DNA from: Siphonobacter curvatus
GTDB lineage: Bacteria > Bacteroidota > Bacteroidia > Cytophagales > Spirosomataceae
NCBI RefSeq assembly: GCF_002943425.1
Contig: NZ_PTRA01000002.1
Span: 100,090-124,089 of the forward strand
DNA length: 24,000 nt
Reading direction: 5' to 3'
The notes beneath the pieces are model-generated. The model did no database searches. It was not told the origin of the DNA and worked only from the letters and a program-made list of their open reading frames with translations. Made by a program: the position numbers and the translations under genes. Each line of letters opens with the position of its first letter. Position 1 is the stretch's first letter. Below, piece by piece: positions 5,753-18,246 of the stretch.

Positions 5753-5791
5753 CTTAAACCTTTGTATCGTCAACGGAAAACAAAGACAGTT

Positions 5792-7354
5792 ATGAAATTC
5801 AATACAACGCCTCAACAAAGTCAGCCGATCCTGAACCATGAAGGAGCGAAAGCCTACCGCATGAATCCAGCTCTGGAGTTGTATTCAACCGTAGTAACCT
5901 GGTCTTTGAATGATACCTTTTACGAGCCCAATGATGAGCGACTCATCCGGATACGCAATCTGATTGCTCAGAATGATCCGGGTTTTGTAGCAAAACTGGC
6001 CATTTACGCCCGGCATGAGATGTATCTGCGTTCGGCTCCTCTGGTACTACTGGCAGAATTGGCCCGTATTCACTCCGGGGATGACCTCGTCGCCCGAATG
6101 ACGGAGCGGGTCATTGCCCGTGCCGATGAAATTACGGAGCTGCTGGCCTGCTATCAGGCTCTAAACGAACGAACCGGTTTGAAAAAACTCAATCGGTTAT
6201 CTAAGCAACTGCAAAAAGGGCTGGCTTCGGCATTTAACCAATTTGATGCGTATCAATTTGCTAAATACAATCGAAATACGGCTATCAAACTGCGGGATGC
6301 CTTGTTTTTAGTTCATCCCAAAGCTAAAAATCTAGCTCAACAGGAAATTTTCAATCAGATTGTAACCAACACATTACCTGTACCCTATACCTGGGAAACC
6401 GAATTGTCAGCGTTGGGGCAGCAAAAGTTTAAATTAGCCACAGAAAAAGAGGCTGCCTTTCAGCAAAAGTGGGAAGAACTGATCGATAGTAACAAACTGG
6501 GGTACATGGCTTTGCTGCGAAACCTGCGAAATGTGTTCGAAGCCGGGGTCTCGTATGCACATCTGAAAAAAGCCGTCAATACTTTAGCCTCGCCTGAACA
6601 GGTCGCCCGGTCGAAGCAGTTTCCCTTCCGCTATTTAGCCGCTTATCGTGAGTTACAGGGAACGGAAATGAAACGTCCTAAGCAGGAAGGCTGGATTGGA
6701 AAAGTTTTCAGTGGTCAAGGGTACGTAGGAGAGGTTTTGGACGGATTGGAAAAGGCCGTAGTTCAAAGTGCCCGTCGGATTCAGGGTTTCGATGAACATA
6801 CCCGCGTACTGTTAGCCTGCGACGTATCGGGCTCGATGCAGAAGCCTGTTTCACCGCAGTCCAGTATCTTACTTTACGATATTGGTTTGATGCTAGCTAT
6901 GCTGTTACAATCCCGTTGCAGGAATGTACAGGTTGGAATGTTCGGCGATAGCTGGAAGCGAATTCAGGTTCCTAAAAATCGAATCCTCGCCAATGTGCAT
7001 GAATTCTATAAACGAGAGGGAGAGGTAGGCTATGCTACTAATGGTTATCTAGTATTAAAAGAACTGATAGACCGCCGCCAGAAAATGGATAAAATCATGT
7101 TTTTCACGGATTTGCAGCTCTGGAACAGCGGCTCAGGGAGCGATCAGCTAAGTAAGCTGTGGGGGAAGTATAAACAGGAGATTCACCCTTCAGCCCGTCT
7201 GTATTTGTTTGACTTAAGTGGTTACGGCAAAACGCCCCTACAAGTCCTCCGGAATGATGTATACCTGATTGCGGGCTGGAGTGATAAAATCTTCGGGGTA
7301 CTGGAAGCCCTTGAAAAGGGTGAGTCAATTCTGGAAATGATTATGAATTATTGA
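5792..7354 (+). CDS. rsr: Ro60 ortholog (Rsr): TROVE domain plus C-terminal vWA domain
   Basis: The N-terminus NHEGAKAYRMNPALELYSTVVTWSLNDTFYEPNDERL...YARHEMYLRSAP is a TROVE signature. The C-terminal LLACDVSGSM is a vWA MIDAS DxSxS motif. The start is placed at ATG 5792 (MKFNTTPQQ) rather than the TTG at 5762 given by the ORF track. Confidence 0.9.
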   Translation: MKFNTTPQQSQPILNHEGAKAYRMNPALELYSTVVTWSLNDTFYEPNDERLIRIRNLIAQNDPGFVAKLAIYARHEMYLRSAPLVLLAELARIHSGDDLVARMTERVIARADEITELLACYQALNERTGLKKLNRLSKQLQKGLASAFNQFDAYQFAKYNRNTAIKLRDALFLVHPKAKNLAQQEIFNQIVTNTLPVPYTWETELSALGQQKFKLATEKEAAFQQKWEELIDSNKLGYMALLRNLRNVFEAGVSYAHLKKAVNTLASPEQVARSKQFPFRYLAAYRELQGTEMKRPKQEGWIGKVFSGQGYVGEVLDGLEKAVVQSARRIQGFDEHTRVLLACDVSGSMQKPVSPQSSILLYDIGLMLAMLLQSRCRNVQVGMFGDSWKRIQVPKNRILANVHEFYKREGEVGYATNGYLVLKELIDRRQKMDKIMFFTDLQLWNSGSGSDQLSKLWGKYKQEIHPSARLYLFDLSGYGKTPLQVLRNDVYLIAGWSDKIFGVLEALEKGESILEMIMNY

Positions 7355-7556: not shown

Positions 7557-7609
7557 CAATATCGTTATTGAACTTGAAATCCGTTCGTTACTTTTCTAAA
7601 TGCTTTTAT

Positions 7610-8368
7610 ATGAAAGATAGAATCGCTAGCCTTTTTATGGACAAAAGCGAAATTCCGCTTTTTTACATTGAAAGTGGGAGTCGGCTTTGGGGGATTGCCA
7701 GTCCCGATAGTGACTTTGATGTGCGAGGTTTTCACCTTCCGGCCAAAACAAATTACTTCGATTTTAAGAAACAGCGGGATGTATGGGAGGTAATGGATGG
7801 AGAACTGGATTTTGTATCATACGATCTGGATAAGATGTTTGGATTGTTACAAAAAAGTAACCCTACAGTTTTTGAGTGGGTGCGAGCCGATCTGATGTAT
7901 TGGAATGAACTACCTGATTGGGATACATTTCGTAGTGAAGTTAGCGAAAATATCAATTTTAAAGCTCTTTACTATCATTACCACTCGTTGGCTAAGAGTC
8001 ACTTTTACAAGCTGGAAAGCGATCAGAAGTTTACGTATAAAGTAGCGTTTTACTGCATGCGGGGTCTTCTGTCCGCGGAATTAGCCAGCCGGCAAGTAGT
8101 GCCAGAGCTTTTGATCGACGATCTCTTCAAGCAGTTTAATACTGAATCTGAGGTGATCAAACTTGCAAAGGCTAGTCTGGAAAGAAAAAGACAGCAAACG
8201 GAAAAAGAAGAAATAAAGGAAGAAGATAAACAAAAGATCATACAAGGCATTAAAGCTTATTTATATCGTTTTGAGAGCATTACGCCAGGAGGTAGTTCAA
8301 CTCAGGCAAAATTGGATAGAGTTCTAACGAATTATAGTGTTCAAATAAAATCCATGTTTTATGCCTGA
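7610..8368 (+). CDS. RlaP-type (YcgL-like, pol-beta superfamily) nucleotidyltransferase associated with RNA-repair loci
   Basis: The motif ESGSRLWGIASPDSDFDVRGFH matches the nucleotidyltransferase signature G-S-x9-13-D-x-D. The start is placed at ATG 7610 (MKDRIASLF), because the listed TTG at 7568 adds 14 poorly coding residues. The gene lies between tRNA-like RNA modules and downstream of rsr. Confidence 0.75.
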   Translation: MKDRIASLFMDKSEIPLFYIESGSRLWGIASPDSDFDVRGFHLPAKTNYFDFKKQRDVWEVMDGELDFVSYDLDKMFGLLQKSNPTVFEWVRADLMYWNELPDWDTFRSEVSENINFKALYYHYHSLAKSHFYKLESDQKFTYKVAFYCMRGLLSAELASRQVVPELLIDDLFKQFNTESEVIKLAKASLERKRQQTEKEEIKEEDKQKIIQGIKAYLYRFESITPGGSSTQAKLDRVLTNYSVQIKSMFYA

Positions 8369-8444
8369 ATGGATACCGGCTGGTATTAAAAATGCAGCTT
8401 TACAAAGCCGAAGGTGTTACTGACTTGGTAGCAAAAACTAGTTT

Positions 8445-8568
8445 TAAGGATGTCGTAGAAACGGGTTACTTCGTATGGAATCTACTGAGAGTGAGCCTAT
8501 TGACCAGGTCAGTAGGTAGGTTCGAATCCTCTGAAAGGTCACCCACCCGAATTGCTGGTTACTCCTGA
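8445..8568 (+). ncRNA. Y-RNA-like module 2 (degenerate paralog of module 1)
   Basis: Leader box AAGGATGTCGTAG lies at 8446-8458. CTTCG at 8469-8473 is at the same offset as in module 1. The T-arm-like element is GTAGG-TTCGAAT-CCTCT (8516-8532), with one U-C mismatch. A hairpin TGAC-CAG-GTCA lies at 8501-8511. The stem CGGGT (8462-8466) / ACCCG (8545-8549) covaries with the module 1 stem. AGGA (8447-8450) pairs with TCCT (8563-8566). Confidence 0.5.
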
Positions 8569-8598
8569 ATCATTACAACCCACCCGTTAACAAGAAAA

Positions 8599-8717
8599 GA
8601 AGGTGTCGTATCGCGGCGTTGCTTCGTGTCGCCGGTTCGAATCCGGCTCTGGTCAGCCAGGTAGCTCAGTAGGTAGAGCAGATTTTTGCCCCGAGCTTAT
8701 TACCCTTCTCCACCTTT
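8599..8717 (+). ncRNA. yrlA: YrlA-like Y RNA (module 3): circularly permuted tRNA mimic
   Basis: Leader box AAGGTGTCGTA lies at 8600-8610. The T-arm GCCGG-TTCGAAT-CCGGC (8631-8647) is perfect. It is followed by a closed acceptor-like hairpin TCTGG-TCAG-CCAGG (8648-8661), then TA, then a canonical D-arm GCTC-AGTAGGTA-GAGC (8664-8679). A stem pairs 8611-8618 with 8687-8694. A closing stem pairs AAGGTG (8600-8605) with CACCTT (8711-8716). Confidence 0.8.
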
Positions 8718-8838
8718 AAAGGTGCCGTAAAACAGTGATCCTTCGGTTAGAACATCCGTGCCGATGGGCCGGAAGGTCGCAGGTTCGAGCCCTGCCTTAT
8801 AGTTCAGTTAATAAAGCACTGTTTGCCTGTTGCCCTTT
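8718..8838 (+). ncRNA. Y-RNA-like module 4 (T-arm intact, D-arm decayed)
   Basis: Leader box AAGGTGCCGTA lies at 8719-8729. A variable-loop-like AGGTC (8774-8778) precedes a perfect T-arm GCAGG-TTCGAGC-CCTGC (8779-8795). The downstream TAGTTCAGTTAATAAAGCA (8800-8818) matches the module 3 D-arm segment at 14 of 19 positions, with the loop GG changed to AA. An 8-bp stem pairs AAACAGTG (8730-8737) with CACTGTTT (8817-8824). AAAGG (8718-8722) pairs with CCTTT (8834-8838), followed by a U-rich ATTATTTG. Confidence 0.55.
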
Positions 8839-9182
8839 ATTATTTGTGTAGCATTGGATTAATACGCTAATCTATACTTATTTTAAACGCTTAAACTTAT
8901 AATACAAAACTTGAATGACTTTAATATTTATAATCAACGAATTGTTAATTCTTCTCTAAGTATACATTAGGTAGTAATATGTAAGATTGTATTTAGTAAA
9001 TATCCTTATTAAATAGTTGCTTATCAAGTGGTGTGATTTGCAGTAAATTAAACGATTTAAACTTTAAATATTAATTAAGTAATAAAATAATTTAATCCAT
9101 AAGTATTATTTAATTTACTCAGGTATTAACCTCATATTTTGATAGAAGATTTTAAATAAAAAGTGTTTTCATTAATCATTTT

Positions 9183-9219
9183 AAAGAGTTGCCTGTTAGT
9201 TTACAGGCAACTCTTTTTT
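9183..9219 (+). terminator. Strong rho-independent terminator inside the AT-rich island
   Basis: AAAGAGTTGCCTGT (9183-9196) and ACAGGCAACTCTTT (9203-9216) form a 14-bp perfect stem with a 6-nt loop. The T-run spans 9214-9219. The better T-tract is on the plus strand. Confidence 0.75.
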
Positions 9220-9423
9220 AACTACACTTAATAAATGTAGTTAAGAATAATATTCCTCTAAAATAATTGACCTAACAAATGATCAAGATGCTTAAGTAAG
9301 GCTCAATGAGTAAGAAATGTACGATGTAGTAGCTAGCTCGATGCCCATAGCCTTCATCAAAATATGCTCAGAATTCATCTAATAACGTGATGTAGAATTG
9401 TGTTGTAGTAATTATTGATTTAT

Positions 9424-9445
9424 TTTGTAGTATTAATACTACAAA
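9424..9445. repeat. 22-bp perfect palindrome TTTGTAGTATTAATACTACAAA
   Basis: Read directly: 9424-9434 is the exact reverse complement of 9435-9445. It contains the TGTAGT motif on both strands. Confidence 0.9.
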
Positions 9446-9863
9446 TACATTTTGTACTTAAGAAGTAATGCTCATTTGATGATATTAAGCAATTAATATA
9501 TGTCATTAAATATCATAATTACTACTATAAAATGCGTAAGATATTTAGTATTTGTTTCAGTGTATCTTTTTTTTATAGTAAAGCTAGTTCTTATATACGT
9601 ATAAGTTTGTACAATAATTACTCAAGAAATTGTAGTTTTGTTAGTTTGAAAAAATATCAAAGTTTAACATTTAATAGTACTTAGCTATCTATTATGTGAT
9701 TAGCTGAGCTAAAATTTCCGAACTAGGTTTTGTCAGAATTCGAGGATCTGTTTTCGAATAATTGAATCAAAATGTATAGGAAATTACGATCCTTCCTATC
9801 AGCTGATACATGATTTAGCAATAATGGCAACTCTAGTTATCCTATTAGTCCTGATTAAATACC

Positions 9864-10592
9864 ATGAATTTATTGATTTTAGAAGATGAACGGAAAGCGG
9901 CGAATGAATTGAAACAATCTTTGGAAAACCTGAGGAGCGACCTTCACGTTTGTGCTATCCTGCCGTCCATTGAAGAAGCACGTACTTGGCTGTCCACTCA
10001 TGATGCACCAGATCTTATTTTTGCTGATATAATCTTATCCGACGGTAAAGTCTTCCATCTCTTTAAAGAGATAGAAGTAAAGTCTCCCGTAATCTTCTGC
10101 ACCGCTTACGATGAATTCGCTTTGGAAGCCTTTGAAGCGAATGGCATTGATTATTTACTAAAACCCATTGAAGAAGAAAAGCTACAGCGAAGTTTGGAAA
10201 AGGTAGAAAGGCTGAAAAATGTTTTTTCGCATCAGTCTTTTCTCGAAGACATGAGTCGCCCAAAGAATATATTCGTTCACTTTCGTGATAAGTTAATTCC
10301 TATCGAGCCTACGGCGATCAATTATATATATACACATAACCATGTCGCTTACATTCACACGGATTCCCAGCAGTATGAGATCCGTGAAACATTAGATGAA
10401 CTTGCTTTACTACTGCCTGAGCGTGATTTTTACCGGGCTAATCGACAATACATCATTCCACAGCGAAAAGTACAGCACGTAGAACGTAGTTTTACCCGAA
10501 AATTGACCGTAAAATTAACCGTACCTACTCCTCAACCCGTTGTAGTTAGTAAAGCCAGAGCATCTGAATTTTTACAATGGCTGAAAAACTAG
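9864..10592 (+). CDS. LytTR/AlgR-family response regulator (REC plus LytTR DNA-binding domain)
   Basis: 242 aa. The REC domain shows the acidic pocket LILEDE and the phospho-acceptor context LIFADIILSDG, followed by CTAYDEFALEAFEANGIDYLLKP. The C-terminal part (YRANRQYIIPQRKVQHVE) is typical of LytTR domains. No kinase gene is adjacent. Confidence 0.85.
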   Translation: MNLLILEDERKAANELKQSLENLRSDLHVCAILPSIEEARTWLSTHDAPDLIFADIILSDGKVFHLFKEIEVKSPVIFCTAYDEFALEAFEANGIDYLLKPIEEEKLQRSLEKVERLKNVFSHQSFLEDMSRPKNIFVHFRDKLIPIEPTAINYIYTHNHVAYIHTDSQQYEIRETLDELALLLPERDFYRANRQYIIPQRKVQHVERSFTRKLTVKLTVPTPQPVVVSKARASEFLQWLKN

Positions 10593-10617
10593 TTGTAATC
10601 AGAAAAATAATTTTCCA

Positions 10618-10643
10618 TGACTGTCCTCTTCAGTCGGTTTTTT
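10618..10643 (+). terminator. Possible terminator after the LytTR gene
   Basis: GACTG (10619-10623) and CAGTC (10631-10635) flank a 7-nt loop, followed by GGTTTTTT (10636-10643). The stem is short. Confidence 0.4.
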
Positions 10644-11114
10644 GCCCACTTCAGCATTTTATAGGCTAATATTATCAATTGCTTACTTAATTTCGTTAGA
10701 GAGAGCCGCTTATCAGAATCACACTTAAGCAGATTTTTTTAACAGTATTAACGATCAATTATCATGCCGCCTTTATGCTTTTCAAGCAATTTTCTGCTCC
10801 TTGCTACACATTGCCTATTTATATATCAGATACACCATCTGTTAGTAAAACAGTTTACGTTCATTTCTAATGTTGGCCTGCTAGAGATTTGAAATATACT
10901 TTCATTTCATACTCCGCATTCATCTAGCAATTTGTCGGGATAGTATCAATCTTAAAGATTGAGAGAATCTGTTTATGAACATGCTATATAGTATAGGAAC
11001 CGCTTACGCGAGGCAGAACCAACCGATTACTTTCCCACACCCAGGTCTTCGAAAACGGAGATTCTTGAGTCTTAATACTTTTCAATACCAAACTTTTTCG
11101 AGTCCAATTATTCT

Positions 11115-11768
11115 ATGAAAAATGTCCTCATTTGCGAAGATCACCCCGTCGTAGGTTTAGGAATCAAGTACTTATTAGAATCTAACTTTCCTAAATTGAA
11201 CGTTTACCTCTGTAGTGATTATGAGCAAGCCTTGCACTACTTTAGCACATTGCCCATTTATATGCTAGTACTAGATTTGAATGTGCCGGGGGGTAATTCA
11301 ATCAAAATGCTGGAAACTTTTCTTTACAAACAACAGCAAGCTCGCATACTGGTTTTTTCGGCCTATGATGAAAAAGTTTACGCTTTACCCTGTCTGAAAG
11401 CGGGTGCAAAAGGTTATATCTCCAAGCACGCTGCTCAAGAAGAGGTACTGCTGGCGGTTAAAACAGTATTTAATAATGAGAAATATTTAAGTCCTCAAAT
11501 GCGGCAGGTTAGTATTGACAAACTGCTCCATCAGGCCGAGGAAGTCCATAACAATCCTTTGGAAAATCTATCAGATCGCGAAAAGGAAGTTTTACACTAC
11601 CTGGTAAAGGGCTATGGCCCCGCTGATATTGGACGGCAGCTCAACCTACATATATCCACCATCAGCACGGTCAAAAATCGGGTTTTTAGTAAGTTAGGGG
11701 TCAACAGTATCGTCTCCTTACTCGAAACCATGCGAGTACTTCAAAGTACGCCTTCCGTAGCAGTATAG
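11115..11768 (+). CDS. NarL/FixJ-family response regulator (REC plus LuxR-type HTH)
   Basis: 217 aa. The REC domain carries CEDHPVV and MLVLDLNVPGG. The C-terminal LSDREKEVLHYLVKGYGPADIGRQLNLHISTISTVKNRVFSKLGV is a LuxR/GerE HTH. Confidence 0.9.
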   Translation: MKNVLICEDHPVVGLGIKYLLESNFPKLNVYLCSDYEQALHYFSTLPIYMLVLDLNVPGGNSIKMLETFLYKQQQARILVFSAYDEKVYALPCLKAGAKGYISKHAAQEEVLLAVKTVFNNEKYLSPQMRQVSIDKLLHQAEEVHNNPLENLSDREKEVLHYLVKGYGPADIGRQLNLHISTISTVKNRVFSKLGVNSIVSLLETMRVLQSTPSVAV

Positions 11769-11782
11769 ACTTTTTGTTTACG

Positions 11783-11833
11783 AAGCTTGACCAGCTACTC
11801 TGAAAACCTCAGAGTAGCTGGTCAAGCTTTTTA
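11783..11833 (+). terminator. 21-bp perfect stem-loop plus T-run between the response regulator and kinase genes (terminator or attenuator)
   Basis: AAGCTTGACCAGCTACTCTGA (11783-11803), loop AAACC, then TCAGAGTAGCTGGTCAAGCTT (11809-11829), followed by TTTTA. It sits 15 nt after the regulator stop and 10 nt before the kinase ATG. Confidence 0.65.
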
Positions 11834-11842
11834 CCTACTTTC

Positions 11843-14800
11843 ATGGTATCAAGAATACTTACAGTTTGGCTGATTAGCTGTGGCGTATTGGTAGGCTTAC
11901 CGGGTTATGCTCAAACCTTTCACATCGAACAGTATACAGACGATAATGGTCTGCCTCAAAACAGCGTAAAAAGCATTGCTCGGGATGCTGAAGGGTTTCT
12001 TTGGCTAACGACGGAAGCCGGGCTAGTACGATTTGACGGGAAACAATTTTACACGTCCCTTCATACGCATAGCCAACGTTTTAAGTCATTGTATCCAGAT
12101 CTTTCTGCCGAGGGGAAAAGTTTATATGCCATCAATGAAAAAAACGAGTTTATAAAAATTAAGAACGGTAAAACGTATCCCAAGCAGACCTACTATCAAC
12201 CCCATCTCAAACCCCAATTACCCTCTTTCCCGCTGAGCATTTCTACGGGATTACCGGATAATTATTTCATGTTAGACACTGTTCGCAAGTATCTGATTCC
12301 TATAAAGAATAGTAGTTTTTTTCTGTGTACACATACTACCCTGGATGCATATGTACAGGGCAAAAAAGCGTGTAGTTTCAAAAGGGAATTCAGCAATTTC
12401 AAGCACCTATTCCGGCTGGGTACTAGTTTATTCGAGTTTCGGCCTGATGGAAAGATGAAACGGGTTAGCGAAGAACAACCACGCCTTTTTCCGTTAACGG
12501 GAGATATTCTTCTTAATCCTTCGTATAAAACGTCAAAGCCTACTATACAACTCTACTGGAACAATGCAGCGGATCAGGCCTTCCTGTATTTGGAGGGTTG
12601 TCTGTACCAACTGAGCCAAACGACGGATGCTTTAAAAACCGAGCTAATTTTAAAAGACTTTGATTTCTCACAAGTCAACATTGCTAGTGTATATTATGAT
12701 TCAGTATATAAACGGGTTTTTTTGGGAAGCTTAAGTCAAGGGCTATACGTATGTACCCGAATGGATTTTCAAACCCTGTACCTGAAGGAAGGTGGTCAGA
12801 CGAATGTATTCTATGCCCAGTCTCGATTTCAGGATTCGAGTGTAGTAACGAATAAGGGGGTGGTCATGCGGCCCAATCACCAGCGAACCGTACGTAAGTA
12901 CTTGACCGCTCTTGCTCAAACTAAATTTGATCGGTATATGATGGCCCTCGATCGCCATCAGAATATCTGGACTACCAGCGAAAATAAACTTTATAAATTC
13001 AATGCAACTGGCGACCGTCTACTGCAGCAGTGGCAGCTTCCTGGGCACATTTCCTGTATCTATCAGGGTGATCAAGGACCCCTCTGGATTGGCGTTGATG
13101 GGCAGGGTATTTTCCAGGTAGATGAACAGCAGCAAGCTCCCCAGCTTTACCTCAAAATGCCTAAGGTACGCGTCTCCTACTTTCTATACGAAAATGCCGA
13201 TAAGTTATGGGTAGGGACCTACGCTGGACTTTTTAATATTCAAGGCTCTGCCCGCAAGGTGACTTGGGTACCAGCATTTGATCAGATATATATTCGAAGT
13301 TTACACACTTCCAAAATCGGTGAAGTATGGGTTAGCACTGCTGAAAATGGTATTTATCTGATTCAGGGAACAAAAGTGACACACCTACCCCTAGATCCGC
13401 ATCGTTATATGGCCCAGGCCCATTGCATGATGGAAGACCGTAAGGGCTATCTCTGGATTACTACTAATAAAGGCTTATTCCAGGCGGCTAAGGAGGACTT
13501 GCTTCGGTTTGCTGAAGGAAAAAGCGACGGAACTATTTATTACCATCATTATACCAAAGAGCACGGTTTTCGTATCAATGAATTCAACGGTGGCTGTGAA
13601 CCCTGTGGTTTACGCGTACAAGATCGGTATTTTTCCTTACCTACTTTAAATGGATTGGTGTGGTTTGAACCGGAAAAGATTAAGCCGGAACTACCGGAGC
13701 AGAAAGTACTCATTGATCGTATAAGCCTGGATGGAGCTACGCAATTTCTGTCTTCGGATACCCTTGTACTACCCCCCAATCATACACCCTTAACCATTTA
13801 CGTTACTACGCCATACTTTGGTAATGTCAATAACCTACGCCTGTCCTACGCGTTTACCGCCGATGATGAAAAAGCAAACAGTTGGAATGAGCTCAATAGC
13901 GTTAATCGAACCTTTCAACTTACGCACTTAAGTCCCGGTACGTACAAGCTATCCGTTCGGCTTACGAATGGTTTCGGAAACGATAATTACTCGGTTTGCC
14001 ACCTTACGGTAATCATTCAAAAGCCTTGGTATTTGCGTACGGCATTTTTGATAATCATTGGAGTCATCGCAATGTTATGCGTGTACGGAATGATTGAACT
14101 TCGATCTTCGTACTTAAAGAATAAAAACCGGAAGCTGGAAGCCGTCATTTCCGAACGAACGAGTGAACTCAAACAAATGCTCGCCCTCGTAGAAAACTCA
14201 CAGCAGGAATTGCTCTGGCGAAAATTCATTCAGGATCATATCATTGCGGCCATAAGTCATGATGTAAAAGCTCCCTTAAGGTACGTCGTCGACTTGAATC
14301 AGCTCGTCTATCAGCATTTTCAGAAAGAAGGAACTTCCCCTACAATGTTGGAAATGACTAAGGGAATCTATGATTCGACCTTTCGAATTCAACAATTGAT
14401 CAATAATTTACTGGAGTACGTAAAACCCCAAATGAAGCAGTCGGGAAGCGTATCCTTGCAACCGGTGAATCTTCACGAGCTGGTCACGAATAAAATTTCA
14501 TTCTTCCGGGATAGTGCCCGTAAAAATAGTACAACCGTGGTAAATCGTGTGGCGAATGCCTTGAGCGTGACCAGTAACCCCGAATTACTAGCCATCATTA
14601 TTCATAACTTATTAGATAACGCAATCCGCATTACTAAAAATGGCTACGTAACGATAAAAGCTCAGGAGATGGAGTCCGAAACTCATTTGTCCATTCGCGA
14701 TACGGGCCCTGGCATGCCTTTAACTTTAGTAAACTGGATCAATCAGCCCCAATCGCGTAGTTTAGAAGAGGCAAGTAAGGAACTACCGCCGCAATTGGGT

Positions 14801-14947
14801 CTGGGATTGATTATCCTTAAAGATTTAAGTCAGTTATTAAAAATCCGACTCACGGTGCTTTCCCAAGAAAGGGGAGGTACGGAGGTGCTACTCATCTTTC
14901 AAAACCAGATGCCGGAAGATTTTGAAGTAAACACTCATTTCAGTTAA
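11843..14947 (+). CDS. Sensor histidine kinase with periplasmic two-component-regulator propeller repeats and a Y_Y_Y domain
   Basis: 1034 aa with a signal peptide. It has repeated propeller-type segments (FLWLTTEAGL, LWIGVDGQGIF, LWVGTYAGLF, VWVSTAENGIY, LWITTNKGLF). It also has a TM helix (AFLIIIGVIAMLCVYGMI), H-box SHDVKAPL, N-box HNLLDNAIRIT, G1 IRDTGPGM and G2 GLGLII. There is no receiver or AraC domain. Confidence 0.9.
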   Translation: MVSRILTVWLISCGVLVGLPGYAQTFHIEQYTDDNGLPQNSVKSIARDAEGFLWLTTEAGLVRFDGKQFYTSLHTHSQRFKSLYPDLSAEGKSLYAINEKNEFIKIKNGKTYPKQTYYQPHLKPQLPSFPLSISTGLPDNYFMLDTVRKYLIPIKNSSFFLCTHTTLDAYVQGKKACSFKREFSNFKHLFRLGTSLFEFRPDGKMKRVSEEQPRLFPLTGDILLNPSYKTSKPTIQLYWNNAADQAFLYLEGCLYQLSQTTDALKTELILKDFDFSQVNIASVYYDSVYKRVFLGSLSQGLYVCTRMDFQTLYLKEGGQTNVFYAQSRFQDSSVVTNKGVVMRPNHQRTVRKYLTALAQTKFDRYMMALDRHQNIWTTSENKLYKFNATGDRLLQQWQLPGHISCIYQGDQGPLWIGVDGQGIFQVDEQQQAPQLYLKMPKVRVSYFLYENADKLWVGTYAGLFNIQGSARKVTWVPAFDQIYIRSLHTSKIGEVWVSTAENGIYLIQGTKVTHLPLDPHRYMAQAHCMMEDRKGYLWITTNKGLFQAAKEDLLRFAEGKSDGTIYYHHYTKEHGFRINEFNGGCEPCGLRVQDRYFSLPTLNGLVWFEPEKIKPELPEQKVLIDRISLDGATQFLSSDTLVLPPNHTPLTIYVTTPYFGNVNNLRLSYAFTADDEKANSWNELNSVNRTFQLTHLSPGTYKLSVRLTNGFGNDNYSVCHLTVIIQKPWYLRTAFLIIIGVIAMLCVYGMIELRSSYLKNKNRKLEAVISERTSELKQMLALVENSQQELLWRKFIQDHIIAAISHDVKAPLRYVVDLNQLVYQHFQKEGTSPTMLEMTKGIYDSTFRIQQLINNLLEYVKPQMKQSGSVSLQPVNLHELVTNKISFFRDSARKNSTTVVNRVANALSVTSNPELLAIIIHNLLDNAIRITKNGYVTIKAQEMESETHLSIRDTGPGMPLTLVNWINQPQSRSLEEASKELPPQLGLGLIILKDLSQLLKIRLTVLSQERGGTEVLLIFQNQMPEDFEVNTHFS

Positions 14948-14988
14948 CAAACAGTTGATCGAACCGTAGGTCTATCTCGACTCAGAAA

Positions 14989-15028
14989 ACTGTGGATCGT
15001 TTAGCCCAAAACGATCCACAGTACTTTT
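14989..15028 (+). terminator. Rho-independent terminator of the kinase gene
   Basis: ACTGTGGATCGTTT (14989-15002) and AAACGATCCACAGT (15009-15022) form a 14-bp perfect stem with a 6-nt loop, followed by ACTTTT. Confidence 0.75.
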
Positions 15029-15195
15029 GACGTATAGCTTCATCAGGTATACGCCTTACCCATGCGTTCCGGCCTTTCCGTTCAGCTTCAAACGTTTATC
15101 GAATTCCGGTAGAACTTCCCCTTCGAAGGAATGTTTTTTTTACAATGTATACCGATCCCCACTTTTTTGTAATTACATAAGCAAGTATATAAACT

Positions 15196-17448
15196 ATGCT
15201 GACTACTGACAAAAATGCTTTTGGGCAGCCCTTTGTTCGTACCGAACAGGTTTCACAGTGGGCGTTAGGGGTGAAAGAACAACTGAAGCAGGCGAGCATA
15301 GAAGCCACGACTTTTCGTTGGGCCCAGGGAAAGCTACAGACGGCCTTGGATGACCATTCGTTCTGGTTATTCTACGAATTTCCGAATAAAGGAAAACTGG
15401 CTATCCGTACCTGTTATGATCAGCACCTGACGGGTAACGTACGCAACCACAAGAAGAATAAACAATCGGCTGAATGGGAGGTAGAAGGTTCACTGGGACT
15501 TTTCAGTATTAACCTGGAAATTTACGAATCCGGCTTGTTGCGGTATACCACCCGACTGACACCCCGGCAAGCGTTTACCGTACAGGGCTTTCCCCGGGAT
15601 ATCTATTTCCTTAACGCCGACAATGACCCCATGGAAACTGCGGGTAAGATGTATATCAAACAAAGCGGACCTACGGCGGGTCTGGTGTATGCTTCGGTCA
15701 CGGAACCGCTGGAAGGTAGTTTTTTTTACTTCCAAAACTTAACTTCTCTAAATGAATATGGATATCTAACGCAAACCGAACCCAGTGGCTGTGTATCGGC
15801 TCAGTGGCCGGAGCTGGGTTTTAGCTTACCCGCGGCCGAACAGCCTTTACCCGCGGAAAAGAAAATTACGCTAAGCGATGCATTTCTGTATTTAAATGAA
15901 ATTATTCCTACGGATGAATTCGAGGGAGCGGACCAGTTTTTGGAGGCGATTGGACTAGTTTATCCTCACTTACAAAAACCCGAAACGGCGTACTACGACT
16001 GGCCCAAAGCCTCCCAGCGAACTATTGATGCGTTAACCAAAGCCGGCGAATGTGGCAGGCAGATCCATAATAAATTTTATGTCAACGCCTACGTAGGTTC
16101 TACGGACAAGCCTCCCGAAAGTATGGTGCAACTGGCGATTTTGGTGCCGCTCTGGGAATACCAGCAGTGGCTGGGCGAGCCCATAGAACTACTGGAGAAA
16201 CTCCGACAAAGCATTCCTTCTTTTTACGATGAACAAAAGGAAACAATTGTTCGCTGGTTGCCCGGCGAAACGTTTAAAAAGGAGGAATTGAGTGAAGAGG
16301 AAGACCCGGATAAAATCGATTCCTGGTACCTGGTTCATATCCTCATGAATCTGGCCCGGTTGGCCGAACATGGCGATATGCAGGCAAAGGAGCTGTTCCT
16401 GAAATCGCTCCAATACGTTAGGAATGCGGCTCATCATTTCAAGTACGAGTGGCCCGTATTTTATCATGCCGAGAGCCTGAAAGTACTCAAAGCAGAAACC
16501 AGTGAAGGTAGGGGAGGTGAGCTGGATACGCCCGGACTTTACTGCCACATCATGCTTCAGGCGTATGAAATGACCCGGGATACCTTATATCTGGACGAAG
16601 CAATCCGTTCAGCCGAAAAACTAATCGGCAAAGGCTTCGACCTGCTGTACCAGTCCAACATTACCATGATGAGTGCTTTGACCCTGGTGAAGTTGTGGAA
16701 ACTCACCGGTAATCACTTGTACTATAAGTTAAGTAAACTCAGCATTGCTAACCTCATTGCCCGTATGTGGGTTTGGGAGTGTAGCATTGGCCTGGGTAAA
16801 TACCGGAGTACCTTTTTGGGCGTCGCTCCCTTGCGGGATGCCGAGTACCTAGCCGCTTATGAAGAAGCCGAAATTTTTGCTACCGTACTCAATTACCTGA
16901 AGGAATTGGGTAGTGATGTGCCGGCTCCCATCCGGCAGATTTCCAGTGAGTACTTCAAGTATCTGTTGCACCGGGGAAGATATTATTTCCCAACGGAATT
17001 ACCCCCTGACATGATCAGTGAAGAACCGCGGGAGGGGCACATTGCTCCGAAATTGCCCATTCCACTGGAGGACATTCCGACGGGCCTAAAAAAAGCGGGT
17101 TCGGTAGGCCAGGAAGTATACGGAGGAGCCATGCCCTATATCCTGACTACGTATGCGTATAAGCGTTTTGACCCGATGCCGGTGATGCTGTTTTGCGAGT
17201 ACCCCATTTACCACGCCGAATACGACATCCTCGGCCCAAAGCAAGGATATGCGTTATTCCGCTTGGGTGGAGTGGCTGAGTTTACGTGTCGGGTTCGGGT
17301 AATCGCTCTGGGTAAATCGTTACCACTTATTCAACTCTTCGATGCAACAACGGATGAGCCCATACCACCACAGGACGAAGCCCGCCAGTATCAGGAATTT
17401 ATAGTGCAGGGTGACCAGCAAATACGGCTGGAGTGGTCACGTTCGTAA
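15196..17448 (+). CDS. Large conserved-looking hypothetical protein, cytoplasmic; the C-terminal half may be an alpha/alpha-toroid fold
   Basis: Uninterrupted 750-aa ORF with an ATG start and no signal peptide. The N-terminal half is strand-rich. The C-terminal half has amphipathic helix repeats (WYLVHILMNLARLAEHGD, HIMLQAYEMTRDTLYLDEAIRSAEKL, MMSALTLVKLWKLTGNHLYY) reminiscent of (alpha/alpha)6 barrels. I do not recognise the family. Confidence 0.6.
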   Translation: MLTTDKNAFGQPFVRTEQVSQWALGVKEQLKQASIEATTFRWAQGKLQTALDDHSFWLFYEFPNKGKLAIRTCYDQHLTGNVRNHKKNKQSAEWEVEGSLGLFSINLEIYESGLLRYTTRLTPRQAFTVQGFPRDIYFLNADNDPMETAGKMYIKQSGPTAGLVYASVTEPLEGSFFYFQNLTSLNEYGYLTQTEPSGCVSAQWPELGFSLPAAEQPLPAEKKITLSDAFLYLNEIIPTDEFEGADQFLEAIGLVYPHLQKPETAYYDWPKASQRTIDALTKAGECGRQIHNKFYVNAYVGSTDKPPESMVQLAILVPLWEYQQWLGEPIELLEKLRQSIPSFYDEQKETIVRWLPGETFKKEELSEEEDPDKIDSWYLVHILMNLARLAEHGDMQAKELFLKSLQYVRNAAHHFKYEWPVFYHAESLKVLKAETSEGRGGELDTPGLYCHIMLQAYEMTRDTLYLDEAIRSAEKLIGKGFDLLYQSNITMMSALTLVKLWKLTGNHLYYKLSKLSIANLIARMWVWECSIGLGKYRSTFLGVAPLRDAEYLAAYEEAEIFATVLNYLKELGSDVPAPIRQISSEYFKYLLHRGRYYFPTELPPDMISEEPREGHIAPKLPIPLEDIPTGLKKAGSVGQEVYGGAMPYILTTYAYKRFDPMPVMLFCEYPIYHAEYDILGPKQGYALFRLGGVAEFTCRVRVIALGKSLPLIQLFDATTDEPIPPQDEARQYQEFIVQGDQQIRLEWSRS

Positions 17449-17487
17449 GGTCAAATTCTATTTACTCACGTTAGATAATTTTTAACA

Positions 17488-18246
17488 ATGCAACAAGCTA
17501 CGCAAGCACACACCCAGGTAGAAAGCCTGGAAGGAAAACGTATTCTGTTAACGGGCGGTACAACGGGTATCGGTCGGGCGATTGGAATTTTACTCGGCTC
17601 CTACGGAGCTACACTTTTCACTTTTGGACGCCACCAGGAGCAACTGGACGAAACACTAGCGGCCATTCGGGAAGCTGGCGGAAAAGCTGATGGCATCATC
17701 GCCGACGCAGCGAAGCCGGATGACATCAAAAAGGTATTCGGGCAGGTAGATCAGCAGCTGGGCGGACTTGATATTCTGATTAACGCGGCAGCTTTGGCAG
17801 CGGGTTCCATTGATGAAATGCCCGATGAAGAGTGGCGGTACGTCATCGAAACCAATCTGATGGGCTATCTAGCTACGACAAAAGAAGCCCTAAATCGCAT
17901 GAAGCTTCAGCAAAAAGGTCACATCGTATTGATTGGCTCGATGAGTGCGGATGTACGGGAGGAAGGCAGTTCTGTATACGTGGCTACTAAAGCAGCCATC
18001 CAGGGGTTTGCCGAAAGTTTACGGAAAGAAGTCAATAAACTCGGTATCAAGATAAGTCTGATTGAACCCGGAGCGGTAGGTTCGGACATGCAGCCCACTA
18101 CGCCCGAAGAAGAACGCGAAAAACAGAAAACGGGAGAAATGTTGAGAGCAGAAGACATTGCGGTTTCCGTTCATTATATCCTGACCCAACCGCTTCGCTG
18201 CGACGTCGTTTCTATCCAGATCCGTCCGCACTTACAACTGATTTAA
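17488..18246 (+). CDS. Short-chain dehydrogenase/reductase (SDR)
   Basis: 252 aa with the cofactor motif TGGTTGIGRAIG, NAA, and the catalytic S...YVATK (YxxxK). It starts 40 nt after the preceding gene and is probably co-transcribed with it. Confidence 0.9.
   Translation: MQQATQAHTQVESLEGKRILLTGGTTGIGRAIGILLGSYGATLFTFGRHQEQLDETLAAIREAGGKADGIIADAAKPDDIKKVFGQVDQQLGGLDILINAAALAAGSIDEMPDEEWRYVIETNLMGYLATTKEALNRMKLQQKGHIVLIGSMSADVREEGSSVYVATKAAIQGFAESLRKEVNKLGIKISLIEPGAVGSDMQPTTPEEEREKQKTGEMLRAEDIAVSVHYILTQPLRCDVVSIQIRPHLQLI

Follow-up and report, generated by a model that had tools for sequence, protein, structure and literature searches.

What does a kilobase of extremely AT-rich DNA, free of long open reading frames (ORFs), do in front of a regulator gene? 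The question was raised by a 24-kb window of the Siphonobacter curvatus genome (G000:C12:100090-124089), which is the whole stretch of DNA analyzed here and whose positions are used below unless a contig is named. In this window a spacer (8840-9863) lies between a YrlA-like Y-RNA array and the gene of a receiver–LytTR response regulator. The original prediction, made from the sequence, had noticed a repeated TGTAGT word in the spacer and proposed a dense binding platform for the adjacent LytTR protein. Our analysis indicated that the spacer is probably non-coding control DNA, carrying one conserved composite operator that recurs at about ten sites in the genome. Its binder would most likely be either of the two response regulators encoded downstream, the LytTR protein or a NarL-type protein.

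The genus comparison covered S. curvatus (G000), Siphonobacter sp. BAB-5405 (G005), a Siphonobacter metagenome-assembled genome (MAG; G003), and five other Siphonobacter genomes. G005 and G003 were the only two other species that share the locus.

The TGTAGTA composite and the spacer around it

The word TGTAGT was found on the plus strand of the spacer at 9236, 9325, 9404, 9426, and 9631. The variant TGTAGA was found at 9391, and the complement ACTACA at 9221 and 9438. All of these positions agreed with the original prediction, and so did the excess over background: TGTAGT and ACTACA together gave seven copies on both strands against 0.90 expected, and none of 2000 dinucleotide shuffles reached seven. 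TGTAGT was the most over-represented hexamer in the spacer (Poisson P 5.6e-5). After correction for all hexamers P was ~0.04, as about 4% of 1000 simulated regions held any hexamer equally extreme. Other AT-rich islands of the genome contained 0-4 copies in 1-9 kb.

Conservation in G005 was limited to the copies at 9404, 9426, and 9438; it did not extend to those at 9221, 9236, 9325, 9391, and 9631. The conserved copies are parts of one composite element, with two direct TGTAGTA heptads (A and B) and one inverted heptad (C) (Table 1). Heptads B and C form the perfect 22-nt palindrome 9424-9445, which had been predicted and proved real. Heptads A and B are each extended to TGTAGTAAT-nn-TTGAA. 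The segment 9396-9444 was the longest perfect run against G005 in the spacer (49 nt), in which identity was otherwise 94-100% for 8800-8899, 53-76% for 8900-9149 (the least conserved part of the spacer), and 70-86% for most of the remainder. A 20-nt core around heptad A was invariant in G000, G005, and G003. The G003 spacer was otherwise unalignable, its only alignable blocks being a Y-RNA relic (8670-8809), 9393-9448, 9616-9674, and 9813 onward, which includes the final 50 nt before the LytTR ATG. In all three species the composite precedes the LytTR ATG by 460 nt and has the same orientation as the gene. Because it stayed in G003 when the rsr operon was lost, it appears to travel with the LytTR gene. 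These results suggested that the TGTAGTA composite is very probably a genuine transcription-factor operator, and it is called the operator below. It is quite unlikely that it is not a protein-binding site.

Three weak unit-like heptads were also found in the spacer (Table 1). Across the 24-kb window, all matches to the unit matrix but one fell at 9404-9625, and in G005 and G003 such matches likewise cluster in front of the LytTR gene. Since the unit matrix had been trained on the same sites, these scans carry some circularity, from which the heptad spacing spectrum described below is free. The other TGTAGT copies were species-specific. They include the inverted repeat at 9218-9244, which is real as predicted, but both of its arms were mutated in G005 and its unit-matrix score was <6. 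Thus, the proposed dense platform came down to one conserved composite site (9396-9445) with three weak unit-like sites. An AgrA-like half-site had also been suggested at 9237. This did not hold, as the GTAGTTAAG 9-mer occurred once in the window, had no partner, and was mutated in G005; no AgrA-type site (ACAGTTAAG-like paired 9-mers, 12-13 nt apart) was found in the window. The motif count of the original prediction is therefore a true signal, though most of the individual copies are noise.

The only exact Bacteroidota-type -7 boxes (TAnnTTTG) in the spacer were the two given in Table 1, both on the plus strand. Because of these two boxes, 9600-9650 was read as the probable promoter zone of the LytTR gene. 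The downstream box, in the block 9616-9674, was kept in all three species, and the TGTAGT at 9631 that overlaps it changed. The operator itself was considered as a promoter and rejected: no consistent TTG / TAnnTTTG geometry was observed in or just past the units. Further downstream, some 100 nt before the LytTR start codon, the 33 nt of 9747-9779 match G005 perfectly and were not retained in G003; they may belong to the 5' leader.

The spacer was as extreme in composition as originally described. Its G+C content was 25.4%, compared with 48.2% for the 6.39-Mb genome, and intergenic gaps of ≥400 nt in the genome had a mean of 40.5% and a 5th percentile of 31.6%. No other ORF-free gap of the genome includes 1 kb at ≤27% G+C. 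The genome has 21 AT-rich islands (1-kb G+C ≤28%), and only this spacer and C14:73051-74050 among them are without long ORFs. No ORF of ≥60 aa was found between 8369 and 9863; the longest small ORF was 50 aa. Two plus-strand ORFs of 34 and 50 aa were tried as coding sequences and rejected, since single-base indels against G005 break their reading frames. No tRNA genes were detected, and no Rfam families were found in the spacer beyond the YrlA-like array.

The hairpin of the predicted plus-strand terminator, with its perfect 14-bp stem, was confirmed by folding. The hairpin 9183-9216 had a free energy of -22.2 kcal/mol (z = -6.9) and is followed by a U6 tail on the plus strand; the minus strand has U3 only. 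It thus has the features of an intrinsic terminator, a stable G+C-containing hairpin and then a U-run. The consensus terminator scan overlooked it because part of the T-run was counted into the stem. The stem was kept in G005, and no such hairpin was detected where G003, a genome without the rsr operon, aligns. No exact -7 box was present between 8840 and 9183. Most probably, this terminator closes read-through transcription from the Y-RNA operon.

Heptad arrays across the genome

TGTAGTA pairs were counted at every spacing over the entire G000 genome, allowing ≤1 mismatch in 14 positions; intergenic DNA was defined as the 13% of the genome outside ORFs of ≥100 aa. Direct pairs peaked at 22 nt from start to start, with seven matches, six of them intergenic, and other spacings averaged <1 intergenic match. 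Convergent pairs (TGTAGTA-N4-TACTACA) peaked at 11 nt, again with six of the seven matches intergenic, and three of these were identical 18-nt palindromes. Three sites, including that of the window, combine the direct and the convergent arrangements. The intergenic enrichment of TGTAGTA alone was no greater than that of control heptamers, indicating that only the spaced arrangements were enriched. Alignment of the units gave TGTAGTAAT-nn-TTGAA followed by six variable bases, which makes a 22-nt unit; TGTAGTAAT-type units are paired or tripled at 6-7 loci. As a possible identity of the motif, the Bacteroidota LexA boxes, GGA-N5-TCC and CTAA-N5-TTAG (PMC8565304), were rejected because their sequence differs.

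The nine operator spacers that were measured were 415-1495 nt long, compared with a median gap of 117 nt. They have only the operator in common; therefore, it is not a dispersed repeat. The genes beside the sites were mixed: a TonB-dependent receptor with DUF4249, DUF4202, SusD, two proteins secreted by the type IX secretion system (T9SS), a sugar transferase, a luciferase-like monooxygenase, and an MscS channel. Orthologous sites were kept in G003 and G005 while their flanks diverged, and one G005 array has three units. The direct-repeat pattern gave 7, 9, and 6 matches in G000, G005, and G003, respectively, and 0-2 dissimilar ones in each of the five other Siphonobacter genomes. For the palindrome pattern the numbers were 7, 6, and 5, respectively, and 0-2 in the other five. 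Reversed-pattern controls gave 0-4 matches. Long intergenic spacers of G000 and of the two species nearest to it house every one of the roughly ten sites, which thereby outline a small regulon specific to this lineage. When metagenomes were scanned with the 18-nt operator core, 89 stretches were retrieved; among the 80 that were inspected, not one carried another heptad 22 nt downstream or resembled the window in any other way.

Several of these sites have features of their own. Apart from the spacer of the window, G000:C14:73056-74002 (L051:3964-4910) is the one AT-rich spacer of the genome that is free of ORFs (28% G+C), and it carries the same operator. About 130 nt past the operator it has an exact -7 box (TATATTTG). 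Next comes a segment of ~85 nt with 100% identity to G003, closed by a strong terminator; this stretch is a candidate small RNA without an Rfam match. At G000:C1:3162170-3162924 (L050), a 755-nt spacer splits a TonB-dependent receptor gene from its usual DUF4249 partner; in it, a terminator and the heptad operator are accompanied by a second hairpin and by a block that three species have kept. The three-unit array at C12:155735-155786 lies between the terminator of a gene for a T9SS-secreted protein and a sugar-transferase gene (locus L070).

Candidate binders and rival explanations

LytTR proteins bind direct or inverse repeats of 9-11 nt that are separated by 11-13 nt and share no consensus (PMC4847170). 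The repeats of the operator, 9 nt with a 13-nt spacer, fit this geometry. The second conserved element of the unit lies about one turn away, as expected of a monomer that spans two major grooves, and the operator is directly upstream of the LytTR gene in the same orientation. The LytTR protein has an acidic pocket, with D55 and K100 present. Its orthologues were found only in G003 (94% identity) and G005 (83-84%); the best match in the other Siphonobacter genomes had 46%, and homologues outside the genus had ≤45% in the GTDB species set.

BvgA, a member of the NarL family, occupies inverted heptads as head-to-head dimers whose centres are spaced by 22 bp, and its promoters combine a high-affinity inverted-heptad site with further sites phased each 22 bp on one helix face (PMC7250471). 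The Siphonobacter sites include such an inverted-heptad primary site, and the 22-bp phasing was observed at six intergenic sites and in the three-unit arrays. The perfect two-heptad palindromes differ from site to site in their four central bases, a hallmark of binding by a symmetric dimer. Within the genus, the NarL-type regulator was found only in G000, G003, and G005 (99% and 94% identity in the two relatives), and no close homologue was found in 300 genomes sampled from the order. Between the operator and this gene, 1.7 kb downstream, stand the LytTR gene and a terminator; the spacer directly upstream of the NarL-type gene (10593-11114) contains no site.

A 2.6-kb segment of G005 (L161:1501-4112; G005:C163:103500-106111) also bears on the NarL-type regulator. 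It is absent from G000, where its flanks are ~97 nt apart; in G005 it is inserted beside a LytTR paralogue, and it carries a 61% paralogue of the NarL-type regulator of the window. Ahead of this NarL paralogue is a 1.4-kb spacer without ORFs; three units, at 22 and 21 nt, are found in its most AT-rich part (22% G+C), 510-550 nt upstream of the start codon. Operator and regulator in this segment appear to move as one module.

The link between the operator and the LytTR protein thus stood in part. The motif is no composition artefact, its conserved core is directly upstream of the LytTR gene, and its geometry is of the LytTR type; the NarL-type regulator, however, is an equally good candidate, with the same phyletic pattern, a BvgA-like 22-bp phasing, and a G005 paralogue behind its own array. 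The shared phyletic pattern cannot separate the two regulators, because the three genomes are close kin and represent one evolutionary event. As judged from sequence features, the LytTR protein is a possible binder, which we name tentatively, and the NarL-type regulator is a possible binder to a similar degree.

We propose the following arrangement. The spacer would separate the rsr (Ro60)–rlaP–Y RNA operon from the monocistronic LytTR gene. Its left third would hold the terminator that closes transcription of the Y-RNA operon, its centre the composite TGTAGTA operator with two direct copies 22 bp apart and an inverted heptad, and its right third the LytTR promoter, as the two -7 boxes suggest. 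The LytTR protein might dock there as tandem monomers and autoregulate its gene. Alternatively, the NarL-type protein might dock as head-to-head dimers every two helical turns, as BvgA does, and place the LytTR gene under its control.

Several observations weigh against a control element used by one of these two regulators. Several of the sites are oriented toward the end of a convergent gene and not toward the start of a gene. The operator is 160-200 nt away from the only exact -7 boxes of the spacer, which follow heptad B at 176 and 207 nt, so that it is not just upstream of a regulated core promoter as at LytTR targets, and no fixed distance from the operator to a -7 box was found at the other operator sites. 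The palindromes with their 4-nt gap are awkward for LytTR monomers, and the non-palindromic units, which have the conserved right half TTGAA and no inverted heptad, are awkward for a symmetric dimer. No TGTAGT motif was found upstream of LytTR homologues of ≤45% identity in other genera, and the phyletic match rests on three close relatives. Finally, 26 LytTR-domain proteins are encoded in the genome, and a complete LytS-type system is located 2.7-5 kb from another site.

The last two observations suit a real operator that is bound by a regulator encoded elsewhere, with the LytTR gene as just one more target. The binder could be another LytTR protein, for example that of the LytS-type system G000:C12:158438-161728, a His_kinase (PF06580)–redoxin–LytTR cluster 2.7 kb from the three-unit site C12:155735-155786, or an unlinked helix-turn-helix dimer. 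Many dimeric regulators would suit perfect palindromes, and with about 20 flanking genes a chance adjacency to a regulator is not rare. Nevertheless, the rival LytTR protein has homologues of 56-62% in G002 and G006, genomes without the motif, and its own upstream spacer has no site, and two independent arrays precede, by about 0.5 kb, response-regulator genes belonging to the window pair or to its paralogue. A binder encoded elsewhere, or some other factor in general, was accordingly considered unlikely. If the main products were non-coding RNAs instead, either a small RNA ending at 9183-9222 or short transcripts driven by the operator, the roughly ten spacers would be small-RNA loci. The strong plus-oriented terminator, the unusual length of every operator spacer, the C14 stretch with its -7 box, 100% conserved 85 nt, and terminator downstream of the operator, and hairpins 10-130 nt past three other sites would all fit. 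However, eight other operator spacers gave no Rfam match, as was the case for the spacer itself, and the part before the terminator (8840-9183) has no exact -7 box and includes the least conserved DNA of the spacer. Furthermore, the fold of 9446-9585 did not surpass that of shuffles (z -0.5), the spacers share nothing more than the operator, and some of the hairpins are terminators of convergent genes. We regard non-coding RNAs as improbable main products.

Two further explanations deny the spacer a regulatory origin. It could be a scar, either the remnant of an element integrated beside the tRNA-like Y RNAs, as the original prediction had suggested, or a decayed AT-rich gene. Its composition is extreme for the genome, the entire block 9813-17500 is lineage-specific, and the neighbouring rsr operon decayed to ORF-free DNA in G003. 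Against a scar, the repeat of the Y-RNA 3' end is absent downstream, where the longest matches were 9-12 nt and no att-like repeat >12 nt was found. The spacer is single-copy in the genome, has no match in plasmid or phage collections, and in translated comparisons resembles neither the rest of the genome nor the 592-aa gene after the Y RNAs in G001. No mobility domains were found among the window ORFs. The syntenic comparison located the spacer at the same position in both relatives, mostly better conserved than the spacer 10593-11114. Integration was thus not supported, and a scar of either kind is very improbable. The other explanation, that the TGTAGT excess reflects chance or the composition of low-complexity AT-rich DNA, has on its side the modest corrected P and the lack of conservation of five of the eight copies. 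It is already contradicted by the genome-wide spacing spectrum, with peaks at particular spacings that are nearly all intergenic, and by conservation at orthologous positions; the exact 18-nt palindromes and the low counts of the reversed-pattern controls argue against it as well. We consider it extremely improbable.

Our preferred reading therefore remains a composite operator in non-coding control DNA that serves one of the two downstream regulators. A more far-reaching version was also considered, in which the heptad arrays form a lineage-specific circuit: one hybrid kinase would feed both the NarL-type and the kinase-less LytTR regulators, the main targets would be unannotated small RNAs or micro-genes in long AT-rich spacers rather than the flanking protein genes, and the window spacer would be a hub of regulator-on-regulator control. 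This version is speculative and seems a long shot.

Gene order and comparison with known systems

The features of the locus and the candidate operator sites of the genome are listed in Table 1. A terminator-like hairpin follows the LytTR gene, which is therefore monocistronic. The conserved tail past the last Y-RNA module probably belongs to the last Y-RNA unit or to its 3' processing or termination signal.

Table 1. Features of the locus in window coordinates and candidate operator sites in G000 by contig.
Feature	Position	Strand	Remarks
Glucose/sorbosone dehydrogenase, GH67, and NrtR-type regulator genes			first genes in order around the spacer
WYL regulator gene		-	precedes rsr
rsr (Ro60)	5762-7354		
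RlaP nucleotidyltransferase gene (rlaP)	7568-8368		
YrlA-like Y-RNA array	up to ~8838		Rfam YrlA match 8597-8713, 44.6 bits, E 3e-8, below gathering score
Conserved tail past last Y-RNA module of rsr–rlaP–Y RNA operon	8840-8899	+	94-100% identity to G005, then 53-69% from 8900
AT-rich spacer	8840-9863		between Y-RNA array and LytTR gene
Predicted intrinsic terminator	9183-9222	+	hairpin 9183-9216: perfect 14-bp stem, 6-nt loop, then T-run
Inverted repeat ACTACA-N9-TGTAGT	9218-9244		adjoins terminator; -9.8 kcal/mol, z -4.1
Putative composite operator	9396-9445	+	heptads A, B and inverted heptad C
Heptad A	9404-9410		
Heptad B	9426-9432		22 nt on from A
Inverted heptad C	9437-9443		four bases past B
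Weak unit-like heptad TATAGTA	9523-9529	-	matrix score 9-12; block kept in G005, partly in G003
Weak unit-like heptad TATAGTA	9574-9580	+	matrix score ~11; kept in G005 but not G003
Weak unit-like heptad TTGAGTA	9619-9625	-	matrix score 9-10.5; partial conservation
Putative LytTR promoter zone	9602-9640	+	exact TAnnTTTG boxes 9602-9609 and 9633-9640
Receiver + LytTR response-regulator gene	9864-10592	+	Pfam Response_reg and LytTR; no adjoining kinase gene
Terminator-like hairpin	10618-10645	+	3' of LytTR gene; consensus scan
Spacer, LytTR gene to NarL-type gene	10593-11114		520 nt
NarL/GerE-type response-regulator gene	11115-11768	+	Pfam
Hybrid propeller histidine kinase gene	11843-14947		3' of NarL-type gene
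Candidate operator site	C1:3162321		
Candidate operator site	C12:109493		window
Candidate operator site	C12:155735-155786		three units
Candidate operator site	C12:366726		
Candidate operator site	C14:73093		
Candidate operator site	C16:275973		
Candidate operator site	C16:22770		
Candidate operator site	C16:43810		
Candidate operator site	C13:45506		
Weaker candidate site	C12:125134		1 kb past window end

The gene order in G005 was identical. The two genomes aligned over the full 20 kb at 88%, and over 7580-10592, which includes the spacer, at ~84%. In G003 the flanks were 91-92% identical, but WYL, rsr, and rlaP were missing. From the NrtR gene to the LytTR gene, G003 has 2.2-2.4 kb of ORF-free, low-G+C DNA (L048:5708-8091, G003:C53) with the relic of one Y-RNA module (73% identity). 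Because this sister MAG lost WYL, rsr, and rlaP and kept a relic, the Ro60 cassette appears dispensable and decaying in this lineage. The block 9813-17500, with the LytTR gene, the NarL-type gene, the kinase gene, and a 750-aa ORF without Pfam domains, had no counterpart in the five other Siphonobacter genomes, and its G+C content (35-44%) is below that of the genome. Between G000 and G005, the LytTR protein (83-84% identity) and the kinase (79%) have diverged faster than the flanking proteins (94-96%).

In Cytophagales, hardly any binding sites of response regulators have been mapped. The result here is a putative operator defined to the base pair, accompanied by some ten spacers that are candidate targets in three Siphonobacter species, and its value is local, with no general point. 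Two binding models, tandem LytTR monomers and NarL-type dimers phased at 22 bp, can be distinguished in this system.

Compared with the BvgA-activated promoters of Bordetella (Pfha and Pptx), the Siphonobacter arrays have the same combination of inverted heptads and 22-bp phasing. They differ in that their heptads are 4 nt apart, their non-palindromic units have the conserved right half TTGAA instead of degenerate heptads, and no core promoter visibly abuts the array. The second comparison is with LytTR operators, namely those of AgrA at agr P2/P3, YpdB at yhjX, VirR, ComE, and PlnC/D. The Siphonobacter motif is unrelated in sequence to the AgrA consensus. Unlike LytTR operators, several of the Siphonobacter sites form perfect palindromes whose heptads stand only 4 nt apart, the promoter is not at the usual short distance, and no LytS-type kinase partner stands beside the gene. 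What they share with LytTR operators is the same imperfect 9-nt repeats with a 13-nt spacer and a 22-nt period, arranged in arrays of two or three units upstream of, and co-oriented with, a receiver–LytTR gene.

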